From Promethearchaeota archaeon (GTDB lineage Archaea; Asgardarchaeota; Lokiarchaeia; Sigyniarchaeales; SOKP01), in NCBI GenBank assembly GCA_029838195.1, contig JALGVJ010000028.1:1-49631 (forward strand): DNA of 49,631 bases, written 5' to 3'. A program made the translations under genes and the position numbers. This document shows, piece after piece, positions 28,803 to 33,023 of this stretch (within the stretch, counting starts at the first letter, position 1; the number at the start of each line of letters is the position of its first letter). Below the pieces are notes generated by a model that searched no databases, was not told the DNA's origin, and saw only the letters and a list, made by a program, of their open reading frames with translations.

Positions 28803-31637
28803 CTAAATATTTTTTTTTTCACGTTTACGACGAATAATGAACTTTCTTAGCTCATCACCAGGTATAATCCAAATTGAACCAAGGAATATTGCCAACCAGT
28901 GAAATCCCCGATCCATAGGAACCGCATGAAATGCATATCCAAGAGGGGTAAATAGAATTATTATGTGAATCGAAAAAGATAAAGCTACAGCCCAAATTAA
29001 ATGCTTATTCGGAAATAGCCACATGGGTTTATTTTCAGAGGTGCATGAGAATACAAAGAATAGTTCGAAAAACACCACGTTGGTAAAAATAATTGTCTGC
29101 ACGACTGCTTTTTGATATTCCTCTGCTGTATAAAAAATACCAAATATTTCGGTTCCCTGTAGTAATCTGGAATCTATCGTGCTCCAGGCAGGAATCAAAT
29201 ATCTCCAACAAATCACGTACAGTGCCACGTCCGTTATTGCAGCAAACACGGCAGCAAAAATAATTGCATTTTTAATATCAGATATCATGTTAAACCCTTT
29301 ACGAGGCTTGAGTTTCATTACATCCGGATCTGTTGGAGTTAAACCGAGGACCATTGCGGGAATGCCATCCGTGGCGATATTAAGCCAAAGGATTTGAATA
29401 GGTTCTAAAGGTTGGGCAAGATATACGTTAGAAAAAATTTTCATCAAAATCCAAGCCGAAAGAATCAAGATAATTTCGTCAAAATTGGCACTCAACATGT
29501 AGCGGAAGAAATTCTTGGTCGTTTCAAAGATTCCTCTCCCTTCTTCAATAGCATTCACGATGGTCGCATAATTATCGTCAAGTAGGATCATGTCCGCGGC
29601 TTCTTGGGTAACCTCCGTCCCTTTTTGCCCCATGGCGACACCCACATTGGCAGCCTTCACGGCAGGTGCGTCATTGACTCCATCCCCCGTCATGCTAACG
29701 ATATTTCCATTCGTTTTCAATATTTTAAGAATCCTAAATTTATGATCGGACGTAACGCGAGCAAAAACATCCACGTGTTCAATCTCATTCGCTAATTCTT
29801 CATCAGACATGTTCTCTAATTCTGAACCCGTAAGTGCACTATCATTTTGCGTTAACCCTATTTGTTTAGCAATTGCCAATGCTGTAATCTTATGATCTCC
29901 TGTTATCATAATCGTTCTAATTCCCGCATTTCTAGCTTCTTCAATAGATTTTATTACTTCATTCCTGGGTGGATCAATGATTCCAACCAATCCAAGAAAA
30001 ACAAAGTCTTTTTCCATATCATCTTTAGTGAAATTCTCGTTAAGAGGTTTATAAGCTAAACCAAGTACTCGTAGAGCTTGATGAGCAAATTCTTCATTCT
30101 TTTTTAAAATTTTTTCTTTTACCTCGTGAATGGGTTTTTCTTCTCCATTCCAGAGGCCCTTGGCAGTATAGTTCATCAATATATCGGGAGCTCCTTTAAT
30201 AAACGAATAAAGTTCCCCATCGACACGGACTGCCACGGACATTCTTTTTCTATCCGAATTAAACGGAATCTCATCCAATTTTTCCACCTGCGAATTAATA
30301 TTCATTTTCATCGCAAGGATTTTCAAACAAATTTCCGTTGGGTCTCCTATTACATCCGTATTTTTTCCATCTTCTTTTACGTTTATACTAGCATTATTAC
30401 AATACTTAGCTACTTGTAGGAATTTTTTCAAATAAGGGGTCATTTCAACCGGTTTCCCCGTTGCATTCACAATTTTGCCTTCAATGTTATATCCTACTCC
30501 TTCTACATCATATTCTTTCCCATCAATATATATTTTTACCACGGTCATTTCGTTTCGAGTTAAGGTTCCTGTTTTATCCGAACAAATGATGTTTATCCTT
30601 CCTAATGTCTCTACTGCGGTGAGTGTTTTCACTAAAGCATTCCTTTCGGCCATTTTCCGCATCCCAAGGCTCATTACAACCGTTATAACAACGACTAAGC
30701 CTTCGGGCACTGCTGAAACGGCCAGACTTATAGAAATCGTAAGCGCATTTATTATTTCCTCTATTTCTTCATTGCTAAATGCCAGTCCTTCAGTAGCAAT
30801 GATAATCAAAAATTCTATTATAAAAATGGCAAAACAAATAATAATGATGATTTTTCCCAAGAGTTTTCCAAATCGTTCAATTTCTATTTGAAATGGACTT
30901 GGTTCCGGCTCTACTTCTTGAATTTTTTCTGCTATCTTACCTATTTCCGTATTCATGCCTGTCTGAACAACCACGGCACTACCATTACCTCTGGTAATAA
31001 TAGTATTACTATACACCATGTTTTTTCTATCTGCTAAAAGAGTTTTTTCTTTCAATTCAGCTGGTTTTTTCAGAACGGGCTCGGATTCTCCGGTGAGAAT
31101 TGCTTCATCTACATATAGAGAGTATGAATTTATAAGTCGGGCATCGGCCGGAATTTTGTCTCCTTCTTCTAGAATGAGAATATCTCCCGGAACCACATGT
31201 TTTACCTCGATTTCTTTGATTTTTTCATCTCGTTTTACTTTAGCATTGCGAGGTGCCATTTTTTTTAAGCTTTCTAGAGATTTTTCCGCTTTGTATTCTT
31301 GATAAAATCCCAGAATTGCGTTAATTAATAAAATTATGAAAATTACTAGGGCATCCAAGAATTCTGAAGCCGGGTTTCCTAAAGAGAGTTCATAGATTCC
31401 CACAATGATTGAAATTACTATAGCGAAGAGCAATAAATAGACTAAGAAATCCTTAAATTGATTAATAAATATTTGCCATGCCGTAATTCTCTTTCTTTGT
31501 ACTAACTCATTCAATCCATATTGTTCCAATCGCTTGCGAGCTTCTTCTTCAGTTAATCCTTGTTCAATGGAAGTGTTCAATCGCTTTTCAATGTCCTCAA
31601 TTTTTAAAGCATGAGCATTTACTAAATCGTCTTTCAT
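28803..31637 (-). CDS. P-type IIA (Ca2+-type) cation-transporting ATPase, copy B
   Basis: Same motif set as copy A; tandem paralogue. Confidence 0.93.
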   Translation of the reverse strand: MKDDLVNAHALKIEDIEKRLNTSIEQGLTEEEARKRLEQYGLNELVQRKRITAWQIFINQFKDFLVYLLLFAIVISIIVGIYELSLGNPASEFLDALVIFIILLINAILGFYQEYKAEKSLESLKKMAPRNAKVKRDEKIKEIEVKHVVPGDILILEEGDKIPADARLINSYSLYVDEAILTGESEPVLKKPAELKEKTLLADRKNMVYSNTIITRGNGSAVVVQTGMNTEIGKIAEKIQEVEPEPSPFQIEIERFGKLLGKIIIIICFAIFIIEFLIIIATEGLAFSNEEIEEIINALTISISLAVSAVPEGLVVVITVVMSLGMRKMAERNALVKTLTAVETLGRINIICSDKTGTLTRNEMTVVKIYIDGKEYDVEGVGYNIEGKIVNATGKPVEMTPYLKKFLQVAKYCNNASINVKEDGKNTDVIGDPTEICLKILAMKMNINSQVEKLDEIPFNSDRKRMSVAVRVDGELYSFIKGAPDILMNYTAKGLWNGEEKPIHEVKEKILKKNEEFAHQALRVLGLAYKPLNENFTKDDMEKDFVFLGLVGIIDPPRNEVIKSIEEARNAGIRTIMITGDHKITALAIAKQIGLTQNDSALTGSELENMSDEELANEIEHVDVFARVTSDHKFRILKILKTNGNIVSMTGDGVNDAPAVKAANVGVAMGQKGTEVTQEAADMILLDDNYATIVNAIEEGRGIFETTKNFFRYMLSANFDEIILILSAWILMKIFSNVYLAQPLEPIQILWLNIATDGIPAMVLGLTPTDPDVMKLKPRKGFNMISDIKNAIIFAAVFAAITDVALYVICWRYLIPAWSTIDSRLLQGTEIFGIFYTAEEYQKAVVQTIIFTNVVFFELFFVFSCTSENKPMWLFPNKHLIWAVALSFSIHIIILFTPLGYAFHAVPMDRGFHWLAIFLGSIWIIPGDELRKFIIRRKREKKNI

Positions 31638-31753
31638 GGTTTTTTATTAGGTTCATTTAGTTTATAATAATATATTAATTATTTTAATTAATAATGAGTA
31701 TTATAGTTTATATATCTGAATCCCTTCCTTTAAAGGATTTTTAGGTGAATCTC

Positions 31754-32146
31754 TTGTTTAAATTAATTTTTTCACAAAAAGCTTTAGAATACATCAAGCA
31801 GTATAAAAATAAAGAAGAGCGTTCTGGAGAATTAAATAAATTTGTCGTGGTATTATTTTTTCATTCAACTAGTATGTGAACCATGACGTTCTGTGGAAAT
31901 ATAGTTGAATTGATTGAGAAAAAGAAAGTATATCGGGATAGCGATTTTGTATTATGGGAAAATACAAATATAAATGAAAACTTCGATAACGCACGTGGTA
32001 TTGAAGTATATATAGAAAAAAATTTGGTGAAGGAATTGATGAATCAAAAGCCCATAATTATCATTGATGCTGCTATAGGAAAAACGAAACAAGGAGATCA
32101 AATTGGAATGCTCTTTATAAAGAAAAATAAAAACGTGTATGGTTAA
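31754..32146 (+). CDS. Putative selenoprotein, HesB/IscA-like fold, 130 aa, Sec42 encoded by TGA 31877-31879
   Basis: SD AGGTGA 31743-31748, TTG 31754, 41 sense codons, TGA, then in frame into the 87-aa ORF: MFKLIFSQKALEYIKQYKNKEERSGELNKFVVVLFFHSTSM-U-TMTFCGN...GIEVYIEKNL...IIID. SECIS directly downstream. Confidence 0.78.
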
Positions 32147-32149
32147 AAA

Positions 32150-32185
32150 ATGACCTAATCTTATAAATTTTAGAAGATTAGTGAT
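32150..32185 (+). promoter_or_regulatory. Eukaryote-type (Lokiarchaeal) SECIS element in the 3' UTR
   Basis: A-TGAC / CTAATCTT (32155-62) / ATAAATTTTAG / AAGATTAG (32174-81) / TGAT: tandem G.A core, 8-bp perfect helix II, AAA 11 nt after ATGA. Confidence 0.8.
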
Positions 32186-32266
32186 TCGCTCGCGCGAGTG
32201 TTTAAGATGAAATGTTCCATAAAATGAAAAAGTAATTGAATAATCAATAAAAAATAAATAAAAGAT

Positions 32267-32890
32267 TTATTTTTTGAATTTTAAAAGAAGTTCAGCTACT
32301 CTTTTTCCAAGATCCTTGGCGATTAACCCCCCTAACTCATCTTTTTCTTCCTTTCCTAAAAATTCCTTTAAACCATGCTTTTGTAAACTCGTAATTGGGA
32401 TATTTCCTTCTAATACGGGATTTCCTTCCGTATTGCCAACAATAATCATTCCTTGGATCAGAGCAAAATTAATTAAATCGGAAATGACCCCTTCTCCTCC
32501 GTTTCTTAGGCCTGTAGCCGCCATCGGGGCAAAAATTACATCTTTTAATAAATAATTTTTCATTTTCCACGGACGCGAGCGATCAATCAACAGTTTCAAT
32601 TGCGAACTTAGGGAACCAAAATAATTTGGCGCAGCAATAATTAATGCATCAGATCCTAAAATTAAATCCTCTAATTTTTTTGTATCATCTTGTTCTGCTA
32701 AGGGACAATCGTGAGGAGGTCTCAAGCATATATCGCATCCATTACATGGAATAATATTAAAATCAGAAATCTGAATTTTATTAATAGCGAAATCTGCTGA
32801 AACGGATTGTATTCCTTCTATAGCATTATCTATTAAAAAATTACAACTTCTATTTTTCCGAGGTGAACCAACAATTAATGTAATTTTCAT
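32267..32890 (-). CDS. Iron-sulfur flavoprotein / multimeric flavodoxin family
   Basis: GSPRK, CNGCDICx6C cysteine motif, APNYFGS, IDR, RNGG. Confidence 0.88.
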   Translation of the reverse strand: MKITLIVGSPRKNRSCNFLIDNAIEGIQSVSADFAINKIQISDFNIIPCNGCDICLRPPHDCPLAEQDDTKKLEDLILGSDALIIAAPNYFGSLSSQLKLLIDRSRPWKMKNYLLKDVIFAPMAATGLRNGGEGVISDLINFALIQGMIIVGNTEGNPVLEGNIPITSLQKHGLKEFLGKEEKDELGGLIAKDLGKRVAELLLKFKK

Positions 32891-33023
32891 GGTACATGAT
32901 AATTTTTTATTATTTTTTATATTTTTTCCAAAATCTTCAATTCGTTATATTTGACTTTAAATTTAAAATATTTTTGGAAAATTGTTCAATAAACATGATT
33001 CTTATTTAATTAGGCAAGCTGAC

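Follow-up and report, generated by a model that had tools for sequence, protein, structure and literature searches.

A hidden selenoprotein gene in a lokiarchaeial genome is predicted to encode an IscA/HesB-fold protein with selenocysteine at the first-cysteine position

In following up an original prediction made on a stretch of DNA from a Promethearchaeota archaeon (Lokiarchaeia, Sigyniarchaeales; contig JALGVJ010000028.1 of assembly GCA_029838195.1, positions 1–49,631 of the forward strand; 49,631 nucleotides in full length, hereafter designated the window), we found that the reading of positions 31754–32146 as a hidden selenoprotein gene is strongly supported by comparative sequence analysis. 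Thus, the two short open reading frames (ORFs) called at this site would constitute one gene for a 130-residue protein with the IscA/HesB fold, the UGA at 31877–31879 being read as selenocysteine (Sec) by means of a SECIS element of the lokiarchaeal kind (lokiSECIS); we assign this reading a probability of about 0.9. The locus had been proposed to hold a mis-annotated and possibly undescribed Asgard selenoprotein, and this proposal now draws on a conserved UGA, homologues with Cys in its place, a covarying SECIS element, and the Sec machinery of the genome. The relevant features of the window are as follows.

28803–31637, reverse strand: divergent P2A-type (PMR1/SERCA-like) P-type ATPase, the sole conserved neighbour
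31707–31714, forward strand: TATA-like box TTTATATA, about 40 nt 5′ of the start codon
31743–31748, forward strand: Shine–Dalgarno-like AGGTGA, 5 nt before the TTG start at 31754–31756
31754–32146, forward strand: predicted selenoprotein coding sequence of subfamily A (read-through translation), with TTG start, 130 aa, and TAA at 32144–32146
31877–31879, forward strand: in-frame TGA, the predicted Sec codon (U42), TGA in 45/45 A-type genes
31892–31894, forward strand: TGT for Cys47, the Sec partner in the U-x4-C motif and an invariant column of the 41-sequence alignment
32150–32184, forward strand: predicted lokiSECIS (eukaryote-like), starting 3 nt after the stop codon, with AUGA at 32150–32153, C32154 opposite U32182, a helix of 32155–32162 with 32174–32181, an 11-nt loop at 32163–32173 (AUAAAUUUUAG), and GA at 32183–32184
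32187–32200, forward strand: GC-rich hairpin CGCUC-GCGC-GAGUG, immediately 3′ of the SECIS core

Re-reading of the sequence returned the layout just as first described, namely the TATA-like box, AGGTGA, TTG, TGA, and the 87-aa ORF. The frame runs from TTG 31754 through 41 sense codons, the TGA, ACC, ATG 31883, and 86 more codons to TAA, and its read-through product reads ..HSTSM-U-TMTF-C-GN.. around Sec (U42 and C47). The box at 31707–31714 may be a promoter element. Translation with table 11 splits the frame into two ORFs, one of 44 aa starting at GTG 31745 inside the Shine–Dalgarno sequence and the other of 87 aa, and the databases give the gene either as 40-aa and 84–87-aa 'hypothetical' fragments or with Trp under table 4; for example, a 71%-identical orthologue, present in four Promethearchaeota MAGs, is split into a 40-aa ORF and, after it, a 'hypothetical protein' of 84 aa. 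The chance of a 41-codon open frame at a single locus is about 4% at the GC content of 32.6%. Orthologues carry a GGTGA/GGTGG box at equal spacing upstream of the start, and in several the codon that corresponds to TTG 31754 is ATG, which supports this start.

Two peculiarities of the gene ends were observed among the orthologues. At the conserved start after GGTGA/GGTGG, several lack all of ATG, GTG, and TTG (L028:1501, L035:1869, L058:1203, L038:1863, and L044:814; also L011, L012, L015, and L033); in some, ATA, GTA, CTG, or ATT takes its place, and in others a stop or non-cognate codon stands immediately 5′ of the conserved F-K-[IVL] N-terminus. Judging from these alignments, non-canonical initiation codons seem to be used in the selenoprotein family, and perhaps in the lineage. 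At the other end, the C-terminal Gly codon of the 71%-identical orthologue (L003:3250–3258) is replaced by TGA, followed by TAA (..V-Y-TGA-TAA), 3 nt before its SECIS; this terminal TGA is probably a plain stop, the alternative being a C-terminal Sec.

The in-frame TGA proved to be conserved throughout the family. When 154 genomes of the window's order were searched in six frames, 54 gave matches, and every full-length match in these genomes, down to 25–36% identity, contained exactly one in-frame TGA; the orthologues, with 36–70% identity to the window protein, are all full length with one TGA each. In a profile search of 400 Asgard genomes the family was matched in 57, of which 53 belong to the window's taxonomic family; it is missing from 81 of the 134 genomes of that Lokiarchaeial family, though those genomes use Sec, and is thus present in about 40% of them. 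The Sec column of the codon alignment is TGA in 45/45 A-type orthologues from 11 genera, and TGA is also kept in the paralogous subfamily B. Moreover, the segment 5′ of the TGA contains no in-frame stop in the 45 orthologues, whereas the other two frames contain 119 and 188. Substitution rates at the first, second, and third codon positions are 0.435, 0.264, and 0.522 on the 5′ side and 0.374, 0.186, and 0.555 on the 3′ side of the TGA (45 genes), so that the order of third > first > second, a coding pattern, holds on both sides, and both halves of the gene are, on these rates, under purifying selection.

These data bear on two simpler accounts of the locus. TGA is one step from TGT and TGC, and Cys forms of the protein exist, as would be expected if a HesB-like gene had become a pseudogene by nonsense mutation of what was once a Cys codon; yet such an origin is exceedingly improbable in view of a TGA common to all 45 orthologues and to a paralogous subfamily, of the purifying selection on both halves, and of a covarying SECIS element retained only behind TGA-containing copies. 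Alternatively, there might be two small genes, a peptide of 41–44 aa ending at the UGA and an 87-aa protein re-initiating at AUG 31883 (UGA-ACC-AUG). Gene callers do yield these two ORFs here and in relatives, in agreement with the database annotation, and many A-type genes have Met two codons past the TGA. However, this Met is absent from at least 11 A-type orthologues (UTTF, UTIA, UTLA, UALA, UTSI, USVF, and others) and from all B-type paralogues (USG., USR.), the Cys forms are single unbroken ORFs, and the AlphaFold2 model described below folds the halves on either side of the TGA as a single domain in which their β-strands pair. Two genes would also leave the SECIS element without a purpose, and we regard this arrangement as very unlikely. 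The original prediction had itself asked whether homologues begin at M44 or have a residue other than Cys at position 42: they do not begin there, the N-terminal 41 codons being conserved as protein, and the homologues that lack the TGA carry Cys at that position. The search of Asgard genomes that it had proposed thus returned conservation on both sides of the TGA as well as TGA/Cys pairs.

The one-gene selenoprotein reading is further informed by the subdivision of the family, which consists of three subfamilies, A, B, and C, often in tandem. Subfamily A, to which the window gene belongs, has the motif ..S-x-x-U-[TL]-M-x-F-C-G-N.. and the C-terminal end N-V-Y-G, and subfamily B has ..I-Y-Q-Y-x-x-R-S-U-S-G-x-F-C.., with the variant U-S-G-x-[FY]-C. 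Subfamily C comprises Cys forms of two kinds, with either the single-Cys motif C-[SA]-G-S-Y or a Cys-rich loop, C-x2-C-x5-C-x2-C; one Cys-rich homologue is flanked in tandem by an A gene and a B gene. Among the Sec forms the only invariant Cys columns are 42 (Sec) and 47 (41-sequence alignment A1), and the Cys forms P0033, P0034, P0041, and P0042, together with tandem third copies, have Cys on the Sec column. Indeed, profile alignment of the Sec family with the Cys forms (hhalign probability 99.4%, E 1.3e-21) placed Cys36 of the latter on the Sec column. The genome of the window contains a second, unannotated Sec gene, of subfamily B (G000:C38:68858-69214, motif R-S-U-S-R-T-S-C), which has its own predicted lokiSECIS directly after the stop codon (G000:C38:68858-69290, locus L051/L083; 69.2 bits with the SECIS model R1 described below). 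As a side observation, we noted in a related Lokiarchaeial genome a small HesB-like protein (L088, G008:C15:30145-30393) that contains R-S-C-C-S and matches PF01521 below threshold; its resemblance is to the CC/Se motif family, and it could represent another branch of the superfamily.

The Sec machinery, whose presence the original prediction had proposed to confirm, was found in the same genome. The tRNA-Sec (53.9 bits), SepSecS (483.6 bits), and SelB/EFSec (255.6 bits) are all encoded on one contig (C3), and the SelD gene itself carries an in-frame TGA; these four are over the curated cut-offs. A PSTK-like gene was found with 153.6 bits and E 1e-44, below its curated cut-off of 290.5. Within the taxonomic family, 130 of the 135 genomes encode SepSecS. 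A decoding of the UGA other than as Sec, whether through near-cognate read-through or a genome-wide reassignment of TGA to Trp or Gly, might be suggested by the database calls that give W under table 4. Full-length database proteins with W at the Sec column do occur, and one that was checked translates only if TGA = W and so represents the same TGA as called under table 4. Genome-wide reassignment is excluded by the fact that TGA terminates 5 of the 26 long ORFs of the window; several orthologues of the selenoprotein gene also end in TGA. Furthermore, homologues have Cys at this column, not Trp or Gly, and the genome possesses the full Sec machinery together with lokiSECIS elements, so that non-Sec decoding has an extremely low probability in our estimation.

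Decoding of the UGA as Sec would be directed by the element that begins 3 nt after the stop codon. Its stem has nine positions, that is, C.U and eight Watson–Crick pairs, and the helix was independently predicted by RNAalifold from 42 family members. In the family alignment, 96.7% of the SECIS cells are paired, compared with 82.2% in shuffled and about 50% in slid controls, and compensatory changes occur in all eight Watson–Crick pairs. The GA and the last G of the loop are invariant, AUGA is at least 90% conserved (42 sequences), and the consensus loop is AAAAAUnnUAG. A covariance model of the family SECIS (model R1) detects the element 3′ of Sec-form genes that were left out of its building, the own-genome paralogue among them, and the same model detected no SECIS 3′ of the Cys-form genes. 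The GC-rich hairpin is folded by 41 of the 42 family members with differing complementary stems, 1–3 nt after the GA. An A:U closing helix pairing 32143–32147 with 32201–32205 around the SECIS and hairpin is possible.

Other selenoprotein genes of the genome carry comparable elements. The 3′UTR SECIS architecture of three vhuD genes equals that of the family, including the GC hairpin after GA, and the selD 3′UTR has the UGA/GA core, the loop, and the hairpin in common with it, with a stem of only 7 bp; the hairpin module thus recurs after the SECIS elements of selD (L061, from 2505) and vhuD (L107, L108, and L110). Model R1 misses the selD and vhuD elements, being too family-specific, and these were therefore compared by eye. 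Some further variation was seen. In the vhuD locus L107 the hairpin is enclosed by a lower closing helix, giving a three-way-junction shape. Four VhuD/FlpD homologues with in-frame TGA are present in the genome of the window (G000; C1:7185-7553, C84:56471-56839, C75:15316-15684, and C1:90957-91316), three of them with two TGAs each, and two of the SECIS AUGA motifs overlap the stop codon. A few orthologues of the window gene have a deviant 5′ SECIS core, AUGU in L011, L012, and L015 and AUAA in L029, with the coding sequence and TGA intact. Behind a B-type gene on an ENA contig (L079:4889-4962), the helix, loop, and GC hairpin are kept and the UGA of AUGA and the 3′ GA are absent, as if 2 nt had gone from either flank of the kink-turn core; AUGA..AA is found with the A-type gene of that contig.

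The element agrees with the published lokiSECIS in the descriptions available in part to us, in which AUGA is followed by a 9-bp stem, an 11-nt loop, and then GA (PMC4989117; PMC11227280), the loop starting A-rich and having an ultraconserved last G preceded by A (PMC4989117). Both the kink-turn core and the stem/loop by which Mariotti et al. 2016 recognized lokiSECIS are found at 32150–32184, as far as the available part of that paper defines them (PMC4989117). A scan of positions 31000–33000 against Rfam at E ≤ 10 gave no match to a SECIS family, and the Rfam models do not capture lokiSECIS; Mariotti et al. likewise obtained no significant matches with archaeal and eukaryotic SECIS models (PMC4989117). 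The family element is of the same kind as lokiSECIS and type I eSECIS-like elements and likewise lies right after the coding sequence, but in the parts of these papers available to us its host gene family is unlisted and the GC hairpin 3′ of GA does not form part of the lokiSECIS descriptions (PMC4989117; PMC11227280).

The fold of the protein was analyzed with an AlphaFold2 model built from the 41-sequence alignment (pLDDT 81.8, pTM 0.77). Its weakest part is the Sec loop (mean pLDDT 61 for residues 41–50), in which Sec42 is placed between strands 30–37 and 48–55 (β2–β3). The best nine Foldseek matches in the PDB were all of the IscA/SufA/HesB type. In VIA-align, 10 chains had Z ≥ 2, of which the nine listed (Z above 4) all have the HesB fold; IscA 1r94 gave Z 8.1 with 97/97 residues aligned, a further IscA 8.0, and SufA 7.7. 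Direct sequence comparison gave weaker evidence. The window protein had no match in Pfam or NCBIfam at E ≤ 10, a profile search of PDB sequences gave nothing relevant, and only a few relatives had sub-threshold matches to PF01521, TIGR01911, NF041239, and NF038090, those to PF01521 coming from 4 of the 41 family members (gathering threshold 26.3 bits). Direct alignment of the Sec family with E. coli IscA/SufA/ErpA was not significant (hhalign E 0.15), with Sec paired with Cys35. The Cys forms aligned with the same proteins at a probability of 51.6% and E 1.5e-4, their invariant Cys36 falling on IscA Cys35; since Cys36 occupies the Sec column, Sec42 corresponds by transitivity to Cys35, in accord with the original placement of the TGA at the first-Cys site of HesB/IscA proteins. 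The C-terminal C-G-C (cf. C99-G-C101 in alignment A3) is absent, and no Cys follows C47 in the window protein. Collectively, the weak direct sequence evidence, the lack of C-G-C, and the predicted HesB fold mark the window protein, on this model, as a distant HesB-fold relative outside every curated family. The HesB/IscA layout first read from the sequence is hence borne out by the predicted fold, its direct similarity lying below all curated thresholds; the further reading as an A-type carrier agrees with the predicted fold and the site of Sec and fails in the missing C-G-C, by which the protein is not a classical A-type carrier.

Among the neighbours of the gene, the divergent ATPase is conserved; its orthologue adjoins a gene of the selenoprotein family in 42 of 51 related loci. 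It has the motifs PEGL, DKTGT, and GDGVND. Among NCBIfam models it is best matched by those of the PMR1/SERCA type, with 626 bits against TIGR01522, below the 798-bit cut-off. The other neighbours pointed out originally, a flavoprotein and a radical SAM gene, are not conserved in this way: only the closest relatives have FMN-reductase-like and radical SAM genes next to the family gene. Their synteny was considered as a functional clue and set aside, as it is not kept outside close relatives. In the 21 related genomes searched, no canonical PF01521 protein scored over the cut-off, and it is conceivable, if doubtful, that the tandem family stands in for A-type carriers in these genomes.

Taking these data together, we propose the following scheme. 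The ribosome would decode the UGA at 31877–31879 as Sec, the lokiSECIS at 32150–32184, possibly with its GC hairpin, recruiting the archaeal Sec machinery; Sec-tRNASec would be built by PSTK and SepSecS from SelD-derived selenophosphate and delivered by EFSec. Sec42 would then lie in the β2–β3 loop at the first cluster-ligating Cys of A-type carriers, with the invariant Cys47 five residues on, and the product might be a small cytosolic carrier or chaperone acting with its tandem paralogues and the neighbouring P2A-type ATPase. We tentatively suggest, with a confidence just short of even, that the Sec/Cys loop binds a thiophilic metal or an Fe-S cluster, the site probably being completed across a dimer. 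Such a site is favoured by the location of Sec at a cluster-ligand position of the fold, by the C-x2-C-x5-C-x2-C loop that Cys-rich homologues have there, one of them in tandem between A and B genes, and by the link of the family to a cation pump. Against the metal link counts the nature of that pump: a Ca/Mn-type ATPase transports hard cations, which do not favour selenolate ligands. The chief alternative function would be that the U-x4-C loop is a redox centre cycling between selenol/thiol and selenenylsulfide, as in an oxidoreductase or a peroxide/disulfide sensor, without a metal site. Sec/Cys redox motifs occur in most uncharacterised prokaryotic selenoproteins, and these are thought to be redox proteins (PMC13188914). 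In the present family Sec and Cys are invariant and near each other in sequence, and an FMN-reductase-like gene lies downstream in the closest relatives. Yet the flavoprotein gene is kept there only in close relatives, the predicted fold is unlike thioredoxin, the equivalent Cys of IscA and SufA acts as a cluster ligand, and the Cys-rich loop of the homologues is typical of metal sites; moreover, the simple Cys forms are without a second Cys, making an intramolecular pair impossible there. We hold the purely redox function to be the less likely of the two. Returning to the metal or Fe-S site, its most specific version, a Lokiarchaeia-specific selenium-ligated carrier (the Sec/Cys/Sec tandem) partnering the P2A-type ATPase, is a speculative and, at present, doubtful proposal; if true, it would mean that a Ca/Mn-type pump works with a soluble selenoprotein, an arrangement for which we know of no described precedent.

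The finding has several implications. Eukaryotes have no closer known relatives than the Asgard archaea, whose Sec system informs reconstructions of the origin of eukaryotic Sec decoding. As the case illustrates, real selenoproteins can be missed both by surveys that depend on homology alone and by standard gene callers. The tandem arrays of Sec/Cys/Sec genes, some followed by a SECIS element and some not, offer a natural experiment on the exchange of Sec for Cys, and a testable lead towards selenium-based metal or Fe-S handling comes from the combination of a predicted IscA-like fold, a putative Sec ligand, and a conserved neighbouring P-type ATPase.

Comparison with the published lists of Asgard selenoproteins had been proposed at the outset. 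In the parts available, the surveys describe seven families, all found via homology to known ones, and the Lokiarchaeial HesB-fold family is not among them (PMC11227280; PMC13188914); measured against those parts, it would be an eighth Asgard selenoprotein family, comprising Sec subfamilies A and B together with the Cys paralogues that correspond to them. The term 'HesB' is absent from the 87 supplementary files of Huang et al. 2024 (PMC11227280), and our literature search found no paper joining selenoprotein, Asgard, and IscA.

Three known groups were considered as possible homes for the window protein. With IscA/SufA/ErpA (PF01521) it shares the predicted fold (Z 7.7–8.1 over the whole chain), the N-terminal strand–helix, and the Cys-bearing β2–β3 loop, and the C-[SA]-G-S-Y motif of the Cys forms resembles the A-type C-S-G-x-x-Y; it differs in having, as predicted, Sec for Cys, an extra Cys at +5, and no C-G-C. 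The CC/Se motif family (NF041239) likewise consists of small (seleno)proteins and was weakly matched by 5 of the 41 members (best E 0.0056), but the best listed score is 16.1 bits against a 40-bit cut-off, and its motif is CxxU/CC, not U-x4-C. The closest counterpart would be the HesB-like selenoproteins (TIGR01911, HesB_rel_seleno), which occur in Methanococcales and bacteria with the motif UxGP and one of which was 75Se-labelled in Methanococcus maripaludis (PMC13188914; PMC11097638). Like the window protein, they are small, single-domain, distant kin of IscA that occur in archaea and have one Sec at the first Cys and no C-G-C, and this model is the best NCBIfam match of the Cys homologue P0033 (E 1.8e-4); two of the 41 family members reach E 0.0012. 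However, the best score in the family is about 22 bits (22.1 for P0033) against a cut-off of 66.35, and a search of the window's genome with TIGR01911 at E ≤ 1 gave no match. The motif U-x-G-P (PMC13188914) contrasts with U-T-M-T-F-C in the window and U-S-G-x-[FY]-C in the B paralogues, and the SECIS of TIGR01911 is of the methanogen GAA/A type, whereas that of the window family is eukaryote-like. The window family is further distinguished from TIGR01911 by its tandem arrays of Sec/Cys/Sec paralogues beside a P-type ATPase.
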